From assembly GCA_902538185.1 (NCBI GenBank), contig CACBED010000001.1:34195-98194 (forward strand): DNA of 64,000 nucleotides. Reading direction: 5' to 3'. This DNA is from an uncultured OCS116 cluster bacterium (GTDB lineage: Bacteria > Pseudomonadota > Alphaproteobacteria > Rhizobiales > TMED25). The notes under the pieces were generated by a model. It was not told the DNA's origin, did no database searches, and saw nothing but the letters and a program-made list of their open reading frames with translations. The first letter of the stretch is position 1. Every line of letters begins with the position of its first letter. Below are positions 5,593-22,044 of the stretch, in pieces. The translations under genes and the position numbers were made by a program.

Positions 5593-6531
5593 TCAACTTG
5601 GATGCTGCCAAATGGATAGAAGACCGTTAACACTTATCAGTGAGAGATTATTTTTTAAACTATCCCCATACGATGAATTTATATTAAAATAATCCATAAT
5701 TTTTGCAACACTTAGTTCGATAAAATTAGTATTCTTATTTTGGTCATAGGCCAATATTTCAAGATCAGTATTTATTTCTCGATTCTCAATTAACCAGAGT
5801 TTTGCTTCTCTATTACCGCCAATCTCGTCTATCAAATTTAAGTCTAGAGCTTGCCTACCTGTGAATATCCTCCCGTCTGATATTAGACTAATTGCATAGT
5901 CTCCAATTCTTCTGCGTTCCGTAATTAGATTAAGAAACCAAGCATAGGTTTCATCAACGATTTTTTGGGTTAATACTAACGCCTCTTCATCAGACTCTCC
6001 AAAAAGATCCGGCTCTGCCTTTAATTTTCCACTCTTAACCTCTTTCATCTCAATACCGAGCTTTTCAAGTCCTTGATCAATCCTTGCCCATTGAAGTAAG
6101 ACTCCCACTGATCCGGTAATTGTATTCTCACGTGCAAATATTCTGTCTGCACCGATTGAGAATAAATATGCTCCGGAGGTTGCAATATTCTTCATAACCA
6201 CAACTATTGGTTTATTTAATGATATAGATCTGATCTTTAAAAAGATCTCCTCTGCGGTCACAGTTGTACCACCAGGACTATCGACAGTGATAATTATTGC
6301 TTTAACATTATCTTCAAAGTCCAAATATTCCAAATCTTCTAAAATCTGATCCGCGTTTACAAGTAAACCACTAATATTGTAGTTTGCGATGTGTGGCTTA
6401 GAGCTAATATTTGTTTTTGGGTTGCTAAAAAAAATATAGAGTAGAGATATTGCTAAAACGAAAGAAAAAAACCGCCATAAAAATAGTTTTCTGCGGTACC
6501 ATTTTATTTCTGCTGAGTTATTGAAGACCAT
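5593..6531 (-). CDS. sppA: Signal peptide peptidase SppA, 36K type (S49)
   Basis: 312 aa with an N-terminal membrane anchor (LFLWRFFSFVLAISLLYIFF) and S49 motifs VDSPGG, ATSGAYL and TGSVGV. Confidence 0.8.
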   Translation of the reverse strand: MVFNNSAEIKWYRRKLFLWRFFSFVLAISLLYIFFSNPKTNISSKPHIANYNISGLLVNADQILEDLEYLDFEDNVKAIIITVDSPGGTTVTAEEIFLKIRSISLNKPIVVVMKNIATSGAYLFSIGADRIFARENTITGSVGVLLQWARIDQGLEKLGIEMKEVKSGKLKAEPDLFGESDEEALVLTQKIVDETYAWFLNLITERRRIGDYAISLISDGRIFTGRQALDLNLIDEIGGNREAKLWLIENREINTDLEILAYDQNKNTNFIELSVAKIMDYFNINSSYGDSLKNNLSLISVNGLLSIWQHPS

Positions 6532-6586
6532 TTAATCACCGCTTGGCTTGAGTCGTTATCATAAGTTAACCAATATTTGACTTTTT

Positions 6587-8419
6587 TTATCTTGAAGCCT
6601 TTGAGTCTTTTGTTTTTTCTTCCTTTTTTGATTCTTTCTTTTCAGCTTTTGGTTTTGCTTTCTTCACCGTTTTCTTAGCCAAGTCTGATGGGTCTGCAGA
6701 AGCCTCAATTTCTTCCTGATCGTTGGCGATATTTAATGCTTCCCCTAAGATATCACCCAGTGAAGCGCCAGAGTCTGCAGATCCGTATTGTTCTACAGCT
6801 TCTTTTTCTTGATCAATTTGCAAACTTTTTATTGATAAAGTAAGTTTATTATTTTTTGCATCTATCTGTGTCACCTTTGCATCAACCATCTCACCGACAT
6901 CAAACCTATCTGGTTTCTGTTCAGACTTATCTACTGATAAATCTGTCCTCTTGATCGAACTCGGGACTCCATCCTTGCCAATTGTAACGTCCAGGCCACC
7001 ATCACGGATATTTGTTATATAGCATGTTACCGTATCACCTTTTTTAATTTGGCTGAGCCCAGAATAAGGATCATCAGACAATTGCTTAACACCGAGGCTT
7101 ATTCTCTCTTTTTCAACATCAATATCAAGTACCTTAACATCGATTGTCTCTCCCTTTGCATGCCTCTCAAGAGAGACTTCGGGCTTTTCATTCCAGTCTA
7201 AATCTGATAGATGAATCATACCATCAAGATCACCCTCTAAACCTACAAATAAACCAAATTCAGTGGCATTCTTTACCTCTCCGCTGATAACTGAGCCAAT
7301 AGGATAATTCTCCGCAAATTTTGCCCAAGGATTTTCTACACACTGCTTCATCCCAAGAGAAATTCTTCTTTTTTCATAATCTATTTCTAAAATCACAACT
7401 TCTACCTCTTGTGAGCTTGATACAATCTTACCAGGATGTATATTTTTCTTTGTCCAGCTCATTTCTGAGACATGTGTAAGTCCCTCGATACCCGGTTCAA
7501 TTTCAACAAAAGCACCATAATCCGTAATATTTGTAACATTACCTTTTAATTTTGTATTTATTGGATATTTTTCAGCGATACCGACCCATGGATCAGCCTC
7601 AAGTTGCTTCATTCCAAGGCTAACTCTTTTGCTTTCTGCGTTTATTTTGGTAACTTGAACTTTAACCGATTGCCCAATCTTTAATAAATCACTGGGGTGA
7701 TTAACTCTCTTCCATGATATGTCTGTTACATGCAGCAAACCATCCATCCCACCGAGGTCAATAAATGCACCATAGTCTGTTATGTTTTTGACAATACCAT
7801 CAAGGGTCTGACCCTCCTCAAGATTATCAGCAAGCTCAGGATTATAGTCACCTTTAGAGTCTTCAATAATTGCCCTCCTTGACACAACAATATTACCTCT
7901 TTTCCTATCCATTTTTAAAATTTGGAATGGTTGAGATACATTCAACATACCACCAATATCTCTTACAGGTTTTACATCAACTTGGCTTCCTGGAAGGAAT
8001 GCGATTGCACCATCAAGATCTACAGTGAACCCGCCCTTTACTCGGCCAAAAATCACTCCCTCGACCCGAACACCATCTGCATGTAGTTTCTCTAGGTTAT
8101 TCCAGCTTTCCTGTCTTCTTGCTTTTTCTCTACTTAATACAGCTTCTCCGTTTGAATTTTCAACTCTATCTAAGTAAACATCAACATCATCACCGATCTC
8201 AGGGACACTTGGCCCAGAAGCTGACTTGAATTCTCTTGTTGGTATCCTGCCTTCTGTTTTGAGTCCTACATCAACTATTACAAAGTCATTCTCGACAGCG
8301 GTTACCTTACCTTTTATTACAGTTCCTTCAGAGAGATTTATTTTACTCATGCTCTCTTCAAGCAAAGCTGCAAAATCATCAACAGATGGATTTAACTTAT
8401 CAAGTTCATTATTTACCAT
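6587..8419 (-). CDS. rpsA: 30S ribosomal protein S1
   Basis: 610 aa with repeated S1 domains (DYGAFIDLGG, DYGAFVEIEPG, EFGLFVGLEG and others). cmk-rpsA order is conserved. Confidence 0.95.
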   Translation of the reverse strand: MVNNELDKLNPSVDDFAALLEESMSKINLSEGTVIKGKVTAVENDFVIVDVGLKTEGRIPTREFKSASGPSVPEIGDDVDVYLDRVENSNGEAVLSREKARRQESWNNLEKLHADGVRVEGVIFGRVKGGFTVDLDGAIAFLPGSQVDVKPVRDIGGMLNVSQPFQILKMDRKRGNIVVSRRAIIEDSKGDYNPELADNLEEGQTLDGIVKNITDYGAFIDLGGMDGLLHVTDISWKRVNHPSDLLKIGQSVKVQVTKINAESKRVSLGMKQLEADPWVGIAEKYPINTKLKGNVTNITDYGAFVEIEPGIEGLTHVSEMSWTKKNIHPGKIVSSSQEVEVVILEIDYEKRRISLGMKQCVENPWAKFAENYPIGSVISGEVKNATEFGLFVGLEGDLDGMIHLSDLDWNEKPEVSLERHAKGETIDVKVLDIDVEKERISLGVKQLSDDPYSGLSQIKKGDTVTCYITNIRDGGLDVTIGKDGVPSSIKRTDLSVDKSEQKPDRFDVGEMVDAKVTQIDAKNNKLTLSIKSLQIDQEKEAVEQYGSADSGASLGDILGEALNIANDQEEIEASADPSDLAKKTVKKAKPKAEKKESKKEEKTKDSKASR

Positions 8420-19034: not shown

Positions 19035-19160
19035 TTACTTGTTATCCCTACAACGCTTTGAACAATATTTAACCTCATTCCAATTTAGTTTCCACTTCTT
19101 TCTCCAGCTAAAAGGTTTTTTACACCTAACACAAATTTTTTCAGGCAGATTTTTACTCAT
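19035..19160 (-). CDS. DUF2256-like 41-aa Cys4 peptide (not in the ORF track)
   Basis: My translation is MSKNLPEKICVRCKKPFSWRKKWKLNWNEVKYCSKRCRDNK*. The pattern C-x2-C...RKKW...W..V.YCS..CR matches my memory of the DUF2256 family. The start overlaps the upstream DCC stop as ATGAGTAA (8 nt). Confidence 0.6.
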   Translation of the reverse strand: MSKNLPEKICVRCKKPFSWRKKWKLNWNEVKYCSKRCRDNK

Positions 19161-19512
19161 TAATTTGTTTTCGATTTTTTAAATATAAAAAGAAAGCCAT
19201 CGCTTCATATAAATAGGTTGCAAAAAAATATATGACTTTGTAATCAAGCAATTTTGCAAGAAATTTATACCTATCAATCTTGGACCAAATTAACTTAAAT
19301 GCATCAACGCCAACATAAACCTTATCCCCTTCACATACATGGAGTTTTCTAATTAATTTAGATTTATCAATTGAGTCCAATTTCACTGGTAAATCTTGAT
19401 GCAAATCAAAATATTGAATCGTATCTGTATTTTGTTTTTTATAGTGATTAATTTCGAACCTACAGATCGAGCATGAGTTATTATAAATTACTTGAATGGT
19501 AGGCTTTTTCAT
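19153..19512 (-). CDS. Thiol-disulfide oxidoreductase DCC family (DUF393)
   Basis: MKKPTIQVIYNNSCSICRFEINHYKK carries the N-terminal CxxC typical of DCC proteins. The track start at 19560 is a TTG inside the hairpin downstream of proteorhodopsin, so I prefer the ATG at 19512. Confidence 0.7.
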   Translation of the reverse strand: MKKPTIQVIYNNSCSICRFEINHYKKQNTDTIQYFDLHQDLPVKLDSIDKSKLIRKLHVCEGDKVYVGVDAFKLIWSKIDRYKFLAKLLDYKVIYFFATYLYEAMAFFLYLKNRKQINE

Positions 19513-19539
19513 AAGAAGGAAGTTTAGGGGGTTATAAGT

Positions 19540-19568
19540 GTTGGTGGTTGTACTAGACAACCACCAAC
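19540..19568 (-). terminator. Perfect 12-bp stem / 5-nt loop hairpin 6 nt after the proteorhodopsin tandem stop codons
   Basis: Plus strand reads GTTGGTGGTTGT-ACTAG-ACAACCACCAAC (19540-19551 / 19552-19556 / 19557-19568). PR ends with TAATAA (19572-19577). No U-tract follows immediately on the mRNA strand (ACUUAUAACCCCC), so it may be a partial terminator or a 3' stabiliser rather than a canonical intrinsic terminator. Confidence 0.5.
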
Positions 19569-19574
19569 TTGTTA

Positions 19575-20264
19575 TTATTTTGCGTCAGATGTAGCAGCAA
19601 CCCATATAACAACACCAAATGCGATTTTGTTAACAAAATCAGCAAGGTTGTATATGATGTTGAGCGCGTCTGCACTTCCGGCACCAGCGTAACCAAGTAC
19701 ATAGCCGAGTGGGTAAATTGCCCAACCAACTGTTACTATGATTCTCAAAGCATTAAATGCTCGTTGAGATGCTGGGGTACCATCACTTGCACTAATTTTA
19801 CTTGCTTCACCAGCAAATATTTCGTAAATGATGTAGATCCAACCTGCCATTCCGATGATGAAAGCAAGCCAGACATTCATTGCACCTACTTCACCGAGAT
19901 AACCGGCAACTAGCATTATAACTGATGCGATGAGCAGGCGCCAGAATAGTGACGCTGCAACCACAGCAATAGCTGCTAGTATTAAGTAGAATTCAACAAT
20001 TTGAAGTGGTACGGTTAACAGCCAGTCTACATATCGGAATACGATTGGGGACTCGCCTGTGCTAACCCAAACATCACGCATGTAGAAATAATGGATGGCA
20101 GCAATACCTGTAACCATTGCGGCTACAGTTAGAGATGTTTTCCATTTACCAACTGCGCGATCTCTTTCTACCCAGAAAAAGAATGTTGCTGCAACCATAG
20201 CTGCAGATATAATCCAGAAACTTACACCGACGTAATCAGCTGGATTGAGTGCTCCTGTTGTCAT
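19575..20264 (-). CDS. Proteorhodopsin, DTE-motif proton pump type, blue-tuned (Gln at the position equivalent to 105)
   Basis: 229 aa, 7 TM. FRYVDWLLTVPLQIVEFYL gives Asp (acceptor), Thr and Glu (donor) with PR spacing, with Gln at the spectral tuning site. The Schiff-base Lys sits in NLADFVNKIAFG, and the His in AAIHYFYMR is conserved. AAGGGAGA lies 6 nt upstream of the ATG. Confidence 0.95.
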   Translation of the reverse strand: MTTGALNPADYVGVSFWIISAAMVAATFFFWVERDRAVGKWKTSLTVAAMVTGIAAIHYFYMRDVWVSTGESPIVFRYVDWLLTVPLQIVEFYLILAAIAVVAASLFWRLLIASVIMLVAGYLGEVGAMNVWLAFIIGMAGWIYIIYEIFAGEASKISASDGTPASQRAFNALRIIVTVGWAIYPLGYVLGYAGAGSADALNIIYNLADFVNKIAFGVVIWVAATSDAK

Positions 20265-20381: not shown

Positions 20382-21068
20382 CTATTTTTGCTTTGTTATT
20401 ACGTCAACTAAGACTGCAACTATCAAATTTAGGATTGTTATTGATCCTATTGCGACAAAACTATAGAAGTATGCCCATGCCCACCAGTATATCTCCTGCA
20501 TTGGTAGCATCACATTTTCCCAACTTGATAGTGTGAGAACTTGAACAAGGGTAATCATCGATATTCCCAGATCTCCCCATCTCTGTGGATCTGATTGTCC
20601 AAATAGAATACTTCCAAATGATGCATAAACGTAGATAATTATGAACAGGAGTAAGGATACATAAAACACCCTTTTTATTGATTTTAATAGTGCTTCGATT
20701 AATTCTTTTAGTTCTGGTATGGCAGATATTAATCTTAAAACTCTAAATATTCTCAATAATCTTAGAACGAGTATTGATGAATTTGGGCCGATGGGAATAA
20801 TGGAAATTATCACAATTAAGCTATCAAAAATATTCCACCCATTTTTAAAAAAATGCAGTTTCTTATCCTCAGCAAAGAATCTTATACAAATTTCAATAAC
20901 AAAGAAAATAGTGATTAGTGTATCTAAAATATAAATAAATGCTATTGCTTGCGGAGGTATATTATAAGTTGAAACACCAACTAAAAAAGCTGATAATATT
21001 ATAGCACTAATTACAAATGCTTGAAAAAGTCGATTATTTTTTATCTTTTCAAATGAAGTTCTATTCAT
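20382..21068 (-). CDS. Single-domain voltage-gated cation channel (BacNav/NaChBac-like, 6 TM)
   Basis: 228 aa. S4 reads LVLRLLRIFRVLRLIS, with four Arg at every third position. The pore region LVQVLTLSSWENVMLPM aligns by eye to NavAb LFQVMTLESWSMGIVRPLM. S6 reads ITILNLIVAVLVDVI, and the protein ends 4 residues after S6. Confidence 0.85.
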   Translation of the reverse strand: MNRTSFEKIKNNRLFQAFVISAIILSAFLVGVSTYNIPPQAIAFIYILDTLITIFFVIEICIRFFAEDKKLHFFKNGWNIFDSLIVIISIIPIGPNSSILVLRLLRIFRVLRLISAIPELKELIEALLKSIKRVFYVSLLLFIIIYVYASFGSILFGQSDPQRWGDLGISMITLVQVLTLSSWENVMLPMQEIYWWAWAYFYSFVAIGSITILNLIVAVLVDVITKQK

Positions 21069-21397
21069 TTATTGGTACCGACTTTTTTTGTTATTTTCTT
21101 TATCCACTCACCAAAATCTTTGTCAATATTATTGATGGGAAAGCTCACAATGCATGGCATTTCATATGAATGATTTTCTTTAATGAGAGCAGATATCCCA
21201 TCAAAATTTTCTTCAATTGTCTTTAAAAATAACGCGCATTCACTTTCACTGGAAATCTTACTATCCCACTTAAAAATGGATAAAATCTTTGGAATAATAT
21301 TTCCGCACGCAATCAAATTCTTATCCAATAAAATTTTTGTAATATGCGTCGCTTCATCTTCTGAGGTGCATGTCGTATAAATCATAATAAAATTCAT
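21065..21397 (-). CDS. cutA: Divalent-cation tolerance protein CutA
   Basis: 110 aa reading IYTTC...ITKILLDKNLIACGNI...S.FKW...E.ALFLKT...I.ENHSYE.P, which is the CutA1 pattern. It has ATGA overlaps with both neighbours. Confidence 0.85.
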   Translation of the reverse strand: MNFIMIYTTCTSEDEATHITKILLDKNLIACGNIIPKILSIFKWDSKISSESECALFLKTIEENFDGISALIKENHSYEMPCIVSFPINNIDKDFGEWIKKITKKVGTNK

Positions 21398-22044
21398 CGA
21401 ATTTTTCTTTCAATAAATAATACAACAAGAGTATATAACAATATCGAGTTTAGAATGTGCCATATCCAATGTGTGCCATGTGAAAATTGTGCACAAGTAA
21501 ATAAATCAAGTTGCCTAAATCCAAGAGACAACATGAAGATGAAAGATGTGAGAAATAGTCCATATGAGATATTCCTTTTATTTTTTCTATAAGCAATACA
21601 AGCAATAATTAACATAGAAAATAGAGCCATAAGATATGACGATATCTCCTCAACGCCAAAATAACTCAAAGAATAATTTAAGAATAAAAATAAAAATATT
21701 GAGAAAGCAGAAATAACTTGCGTTTGCTCAAGATAGAAACGGACGGCAAGATATAGGTATAGGATGATAAAAATCATTATTGGAATTGTGTCAGCTAGTA
21801 ATGACCATACATTACCAAATAAATGAAAAAGGAAACTTCCCGTACCAATTATAAGAACAAGAGAGATGAGTATTATGGAATAAATTCTTAAATTTACATG
21901 TTCATAATTTTTTTTATTATATTTTTTTAGTAATAAAAAGAAGGCAACCCAAAAAGCAATATTAGTGAAAAAGTTTATTGGTTCAGCGAATATTTCAGGG
22001 GATATTCTCTCACAATATATATCAATACTCTGATTAAGACTCAC
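21394..22044 (-). CDS. Ceramidase-family (alkaline ceramidase / CREST-type) 7-TM zinc hydrolase homologue
   Basis: 216 aa. YCE...AEPINFFTNIAF, GTGSFLFH...LADTIP and HGTHWIWHIL align by eye to human ACER3 WCE..AEFWNTVSN, GMGSWCFH..LLDELP and FHAWWHIL. The Ser/His/Asp/His/His positions implicated in zinc binding are all present. Confidence 0.75.
   Translation of the reverse strand: MSLNQSIDIYCERISPEIFAEPINFFTNIAFWVAFFLLLKKYNKKNYEHVNLRIYSIILISLVLIIGTGSFLFHLFGNVWSLLADTIPIMIFIILYLYLAVRFYLEQTQVISAFSIFLFLFLNYSLSYFGVEEISSYLMALFSMLIIACIAYRKNKRNISYGLFLTSFIFMLSLGFRQLDLFTCAQFSHGTHWIWHILNSILLYTLVVLFIERKIR

Follow-up and report, generated by a model that had tools for sequence, protein, structure and literature searches.

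Introduction

The closest described system to the channel analyzed here is NavRh, whose crystal structure (PDB 4DXW, listed by Foldseek under the title 'Crystal structure of NavRh, a voltage-gated sodium channel') was released on 2012-05-23; the entry contains four chains, and the NavRh tetramer is seen there. The protein originates from the marine alphaproteobacterium HIMB114 (UniProt D0RMU8; Zhang et al. 2012, Nature 486:130), and a hydrated Ca2+ was caught in its selectivity filter, as described in PMC4692491. PMC4225499 gives the filter as TLSSWET and reports that heterologous expression of NavRh yielded no currents, that NaChBac with the grafted NavRh filter is Na+-selective, and that the Glu carboxylates of NavRh fill the same space as those of NavAb. 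In PMC5008630, Ser180 is assigned to the constriction ring, equivalent to the DEKA or inner ring, and Glu183 to the outer ring, while molecular dynamics (MD) simulations of the wild-type channel indicate weak Na+/K+ selectivity. The TLSSWE filter is also treated in PMC5445024.

The better-known BacNavs NaChBac, NavAb, NavMs, and NavAe carry the filter TLESW. They share with the present channel a single 6-TM Ion_trans subunit, four Arg residues in S4, and a T-L-x-S-W P-loop, at an identity of 31-40%. They differ from it in having Glu instead of Ser at the high-field-strength position of the filter; in the present channel, the acidic ring is shifted to the residue that follows the Trp.

Results and Discussion

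Identity and Architecture of the Channel

The window, i.e., the whole analyzed stretch of 64,000 nucleotides from an uncultured OCS116 cluster bacterium, contains a complete gene for a NavRh-type single-domain voltage-gated cation channel at positions 20382..21068 of the minus strand, stop codon included, as identified from the list of ORFs, the Pfam Ion_trans model, and PDB 4DXW. The reading frame starts with ATG, encodes 228 amino acids, and ends with a TAG stop at 20382-20384; its GC content is 31%, compared to 35% for the window. Ion_trans (PF00520) covers residues 13-227 of the 228 with E=1.3e-45 and corresponds to one 6-TM domain, which, together with the PDB matches to BacNavs, confirms the BacNav-type architecture proposed in the original prediction.

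The voltage-sensing domain (S1-S4) is predicted to span residues about 13-116 (20721..21032, minus strand), on the basis of the DSSP helix boundaries of an AF2 model and the alignment to 4DXW. Within it, S4 (residues 99-116, 20721-20774, minus strand) has the sequence LVLRLLRIFRVLRLIS, with Arg at every third position. The resulting gating charges, R103, R106, R109, and R112, are the four arginines that had originally been noted for this segment. The pore module, consisting of S5, the P1 helix, the filter, the P2 helix, and S6, occupies residues about 132-226 (20391..20675, minus strand), and its P-loop, LVQVLTLSSWENVML, contains the motif TLSSWEN at residues 179-185.

The best match in the PDB is chain 4dxw_A of NavRh, at an E value (1.2e-93) that leaves no room for a chance similarity, to which residues 6-228 of the query align without gaps over chain residues 5-227, with 150 of 223 positions identical (67%). 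NaChBac, NavAb, NavMs, and NavAe are matched by the same full-length search at E values of 1e-35 to 1e-41. In a phmmer search restricted to the pore, 4DXW is found at 2.5e-45, and NavAe, NaChBac, NavAb, and NavMs follow at 1e-21 to 1e-15. In NCBIfam, no specific family was found for the channel, the sole match being an uninformative one to a K-channel equivalog below threshold (33.7 bits against a cutoff of 300 bits).

An AF2 monomer of the channel, built with 35 close homologs, is a poor model (pLDDT 67.8 overall and 55-63 in the pore, pTM 0.47) and draws the filter region as one continuous helix. Foldseek with this low-confidence monomer also ranks 4DXW first, and the TM-scores of the search are low (0.44-0.56). 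The 4DXW crystal structure was therefore given precedence over the AF2 monomer.

The channel is thus very probably an ortholog of NavRh, that is, a member of the BacNav subfamily found in genome-streamlined marine Alphaproteobacteria. All the features of this subfamily that were put to the test are present, including the type of host, a genome-streamlined marine alphaproteobacterium (35% GC in the window). Two traits of canonical BacNavs are missing from the channel, just as they are from NavRh: the Glu of the TLESW motif and the coiled coil at the C-terminus.

The two proteins have in common the QVLTLSSWE motif, the S4 sequence LVLRLLRIFRVLRLIS, the absence of a C-terminal domain, and nearly the same length (229 amino acids in NavRh and 228 in the channel). 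They are distinguished by 73 substitutions, which are scattered but lie chiefly in S1, the S1-S2 loop, and S6. One of the differences concerns the residue after the filter Glu, which is Asn in the channel and Thr in NavRh. Its effect is probably minor, because Asn, Gln, Thr, and Ser are all found at that position in the clade. The hosts differ as well, NavRh belonging to the SAR11-related HIMB114 and the channel to an OCS116/'Rhodobiaceae'-type bacterium, and so does the genomic context. The 'NavRhi' described in a 2026 gene-therapy paper was also considered as a possible counterpart, but it is a Rhizobiales BacNav distinct from NavRh.

Selectivity Filter and Its Register

The selectivity filter comprises residues T179-L180-S181-S182-W183-E184-N185, encoded at 20514..20534 on the minus strand by the codons ACA CTA TCA AGT TGG GAA AAT. 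In the HMMER/phmmer alignment of the pore to NavAe (PDB 4LTO), the segment qvltlSswE.nvmlp of the channel is placed over qvmtlEswSmgiarp, and in the HMMER alignment to domain I of Cav3.2, qvltlSsw is placed over qvitlEgw. Since both alignments are free of gaps before the Trp, Ser181 occupies the position of the canonical high-field-strength Glu. Glu184, which follows the Trp, is the only acidic residue of the filter, and immediately behind it the channel is one residue shorter than the canonical BacNavs. The register that had been proposed by eye, with Ser in place of the canonical Glu and a Glu after the Trp, is hence upheld by HMMER against NavAe and Cav3.2. A shifted register that would bring back the canonical Glu was also considered and is ruled out, T-L-S-S-W lying without gaps over T-L-E-S/G-W up to the Trp in NavAe, NaChBac-type chains, and Cav3 domain I. 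In the alignment to 4DXW, S181 and E184 of the channel correspond to S180 and E183 of NavRh.

A similar correspondence holds for the eukaryotic Nav and Cav channels, the single repeats of Cav3 and Nav1.x being strongly homologous to the channel. Ser181 falls on the position of the inner DEKA/EEEE ring and Glu184 on that of the outer EEDD ring. Unlike the eukaryotic proteins, the channel is predicted to be a homotetramer of one repeat, and the inner acidic/Lys ring is absent.

CavMr (TLEGWVD), the engineered CavAb (TLDDWSD), and NsvBa (TLDSWGS) are built on the same BacNav scaffold. In all of them the canonical position is acidic, and the Ca2+-selective ones have further acidic residues, whereas the channel has a single acidic residue, located elsewhere. 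A CavMr/CavAb-like or NsvBa-like identity is ruled out by the Ser at the canonical position and by Glu184 being the sole acid of the filter. The literature search found no work that treats CavMr together with NavRh.

The C-Terminus

The protein ends in ...LVDVITKQK, six residues past D222 of S6, so that the cytoplasmic tail consists of VITKQK only (20382..20402 on the minus strand, including the TAG stop), and the neck and coiled coil are absent. The spacer of 117 bp between the stop codon of the channel and the start of the next gene, a proteorhodopsin gene (start at 20264), is closed in each of its three frames by a stop no more than 32 codons away, and no coiled-coil-like coding was found in any of these three frames. 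A tail of 6-13 amino acids after the 'VD' of S6 is found in 70 of the 73 orthologous loci in which it could be delimited, out of 80 collected (see below). The loss of the neck and coiled coil that was noted originally is thus real, and NavRh is alike in this respect.

Two deviations were observed among the orthologs. The TLSSWEQ channels of three Pelagibacteraceae SAGs (L071, L078, and L080; ORF from 6001) are ∼261 amino acids long and possess a highly charged tail of 39 residues, …NQNKKKDDMIKTRNNAEKLNEQFSEEISLDKLKKDQ, which could be either a remnant of the cytoplasmic helix or a regained one. In L012, a long-read Hyphomicrobiales MAG, the channel ORF (6001-6603) ends at about residue 209, and this early stop could represent a frameshift left by assembly polishing or a pseudogene.

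Distribution and Conservation of the Clade

The spread of the NavRh type was assessed with the best 120 cluster representatives (67-98% identity) from a database of 5.8 billion proteins. TLSSWE is present in all 120 of these closest homologs, followed by Gln in 62, Asn in 50, Thr in 7, and Ser in 1. Their lengths are similarly uniform, 117 of the 120 being 227-237 amino acids long, with a mode of 228 for the clade. The nearest genomes are MAGs and SAGs labeled 'uncultured Rhodobiaceae bacterium' or 'OCS116 cluster bacterium', with 92-98% identity. Further orthologs occur in other marine MAGs labeled Hyphomicrobiales (75-83%) and in Pelagibacteraceae, including Ca. Pelagibacter ubique HIMB4 (60-69%).

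In addition, 80 loci were taken from species-representative genomes of the OCS116/'Rhodobiaceae' group and SAR11. In every one of the 80, the filter reads TLSSWE[N/T/Q] and all four charges of S4 are retained. The S4 core RLLRIFRVLR is identical in 68 OCS116-type and closer SAR11 loci (L001-L070), and RLLRVFRVLR is present in 12 other SAR11 loci. Alignment A2 shows no variation at the six filter positions of TLSSWE or at R103, R106, and R112, and R109 is nearly invariant there.

The homologs with E<=1e-10 number 5,013. An exhaustive search at the level of 50%-identity representatives retrieved four sequences with TLSSWE, one of them a fragment, and one with TLSGWEL. The five Ser-type sequences have tails of 8-16 amino acids, compared to 19-173 amino acids for 16 single-repeat relatives whose canonical filter position is Glu or Asp; the six-residue tail of the channel, which lacks the neck and coiled-coil domain, is also shorter than any in the latter set. 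Because filter type and tail length are paired in this way among the representatives, the replacement of Glu by Ser goes hand in hand with the missing C-terminal domain, and the two mark out the NavRh clade. The TLSGWEL protein (P0143; 46% identity, 235 amino acids, short tail) represents a second Ser-type variant adjoining the clade.

The NavRh type is thus no one-off, but forms a strictly conserved clade common to SAR11 and OCS116-type bacteria. SAR11 and OCS116 are among the most abundant bacteria of the ocean.

Proposed Mechanism

The homology to NavRh, the register of the filter, the retention of the gating charges, the lack of a C-terminal domain, and the conservation throughout the clade are direct observations, on which a mechanism can be proposed by analogy. 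Four identical 6-TM subunits would associate into a domain-swapped tetramer, as suggested by the 67%-identical 4DXW. S1-S4 would act as the voltage sensor: depolarization is expected to displace the four arginines of S4, whose movement would draw on the S4-S5 linker and open the S6 gate. Because the subunit ends right after S6, a trait of the whole clade, both assembly and gating would have to take place without a C-terminal four-helix bundle, and tetramerization would be accomplished by the transmembrane pore alone.

The pore would be built by S5-P-S6. An entering ion is expected to meet the Glu184 ring first, then the Ser181 constriction, and finally the sites formed by the Thr179 and Leu180 carbonyls. 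The narrow constriction would be lined by the Ser181 ring together with main-chain carbonyls from Thr179 and Leu180. The only acidic ring, that of Glu184, would lie one turn farther outward, where eukaryotic channels have their outer EEDD ring, with its carboxylates roughly in the space taken by the NavAb Glu. The pore expected from this arrangement is a Na+-preferring cation pathway that can be blocked by Ca2+, and the chimera data speak for this preference and block. For the native channel, we infer from related proteins that it assembles as a tetramer, is gated by voltage, and prefers Na+; for the natural protein, the basis of voltage gating and Na+ selectivity is the NaChBac chimera together with homology.

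Alternative Interpretations

Three other interpretations of the locus were weighed against a NavRh ortholog of this kind. It could be argued that the short C-terminus is an artefact, i.e., that a frameshift or assembly error conceals a longer coiled-coil tail, given that most characterized BacNavs have tails of 30-60 amino acids and that a 39-residue tail exists in the three SAR11 loci mentioned above. However, most orthologs across 80 independent genomes end within a few residues of one position, NavRh with its 229 amino acids ends at the same position as the channel, and all three downstream frames are stopped, with the next gene just 117 bp away. On account of the shared end point, the stops in every downstream frame, and the length of NavRh, a hidden frameshift, which the original prediction had named as a possible refutation, is excluded. 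It has also been suggested that the filter does not occur among the characterized channels, such that the channel would represent a novel BacNav filter class of unpredictable selectivity. It is true that Ser really replaces the canonical Glu and that a Glu really follows the Trp, and no recording of a native current exists for the NavRh clade. On the other hand, the same filter and architecture were crystallized in 2012 (4DXW), and the TLSSWE filter has already been analyzed by chimera electrophysiology and MD, which makes a novel class highly improbable. TLSSWE is the filter of NavRh, with which the channel shares 67% identity, and published characterization of channels of this type, which the original prediction had named as refuting it, does exist (PMC4225499, PMC5445024, and PMC5008630). 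Both the filter and the truncated architecture have been known since the 2012 crystal structure and have repeatedly been reused in modeling studies.

A third interpretation accepts the kinship to NavRh and concerns what such channels do in vivo. NavRh-type proteins might not be conventional depolarization-activated Na+ channels, but might instead be weakly selective, be gated or blocked by Ca2+, or need native lipids or partners. The Ser constriction, the single outer Glu ring, and the missing C-terminal domain fit this proposal, as do the lack of currents from native NavRh (PMC4225499), the weak Na+/K+ selectivity in MD (PMC5008630), and the Ca2+ in the crystal filter (PMC4692491). The strict conservation in SAR11 and OCS116 implies, in addition, that the function is a selected one. 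Against it stand the Na+ selectivity of the grafted filter in NaChBac (PMC4225499) and the canonical voltage sensor with its gating charges; moreover, AT-rich marine genes often fail to express in heterologous hosts, so that such a failure is no evidence of another function. We consider this interpretation unlikely. A NavRh ortholog that conducts Na+ preferentially is accordingly the reading we retain, and the earlier statement that ion selectivity is unpredictable appears overstated in view of the Na+-selective NaChBac chimera, although it retains some force because native NavRh gave no currents. The channel is a second, 67%-identical ortholog and constitutes a reasonable extra candidate where the expression of NavRh failed.

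Genomic Neighborhood

Upstream of the channel gene, and on the same minus strand, lie a gene for a ceramidase-family membrane protein (21394-22044) and one for CutA1 (21065-21397), both assigned from the ORFs and Pfam. From the ceramidase-like gene through cutA to the channel gene, each gene overlaps its successor by 4 nt (ATGA), which suggests that the three form one transcript and a translationally coupled operon. Downstream, 117 bp from the channel, a proteorhodopsin gene (Bac_rhodopsin, E=1.2e-48) occupies 19575-20264 on the minus strand.

The order in the OCS116-type loci L001-L012 is, in outline, pirin, an unknown ORF, the ceramidase-family protein, CutA1, the channel, proteorhodopsin, the DCC1-like protein, DUF2256, and acyl-CoA synthetase. 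The ceramidase/CutA1/channel order is kept in L001-L012 only. Two of these loci deviate: neither L006 nor L008 gave a match to CutA, and proteorhodopsin lies elsewhere in L006 and was not found in L008. In the SAR11 loci, the ceramidase, CutA1, proteorhodopsin, and other OCS116 neighbors are absent beside the channel, which is flanked there by unrelated housekeeping genes. As the neighbors are not shared with SAR11, the context offers no functional clue. A functional tie between the channel and proteorhodopsin was considered and is unsupported, their adjacency being limited to the OCS116 group, interrupted in L007 and L009, and absent in SAR11.

The interruption in L007 (6702-9928), also present in L009, is a 3.3-kb insertion between the channel and proteorhodopsin genes, which contains two ORFs of 139 and 443 amino acids without a Pfam match and a LuxC-like acyl-CoA reductase (PF05893, E=4.5e-07).

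At 43%, the GC content of the proteorhodopsin gene is above that of both the window (35%) and the channel gene (31%). Wherever proteorhodopsin was found in the related OCS116-type loci, it is 87-100% identical, which exceeds the conservation of its neighbors there. Directly downstream of it, at 19035-19560 on the minus strand, an ORF for a DUF2256 zinc-ribbon-like protein of 41 amino acids and a gene for a DCC1-like thiol-disulfide oxidoreductase overlap by 8 nt, and the DUF2256/DCC1-like order is kept in the OCS116-type loci.
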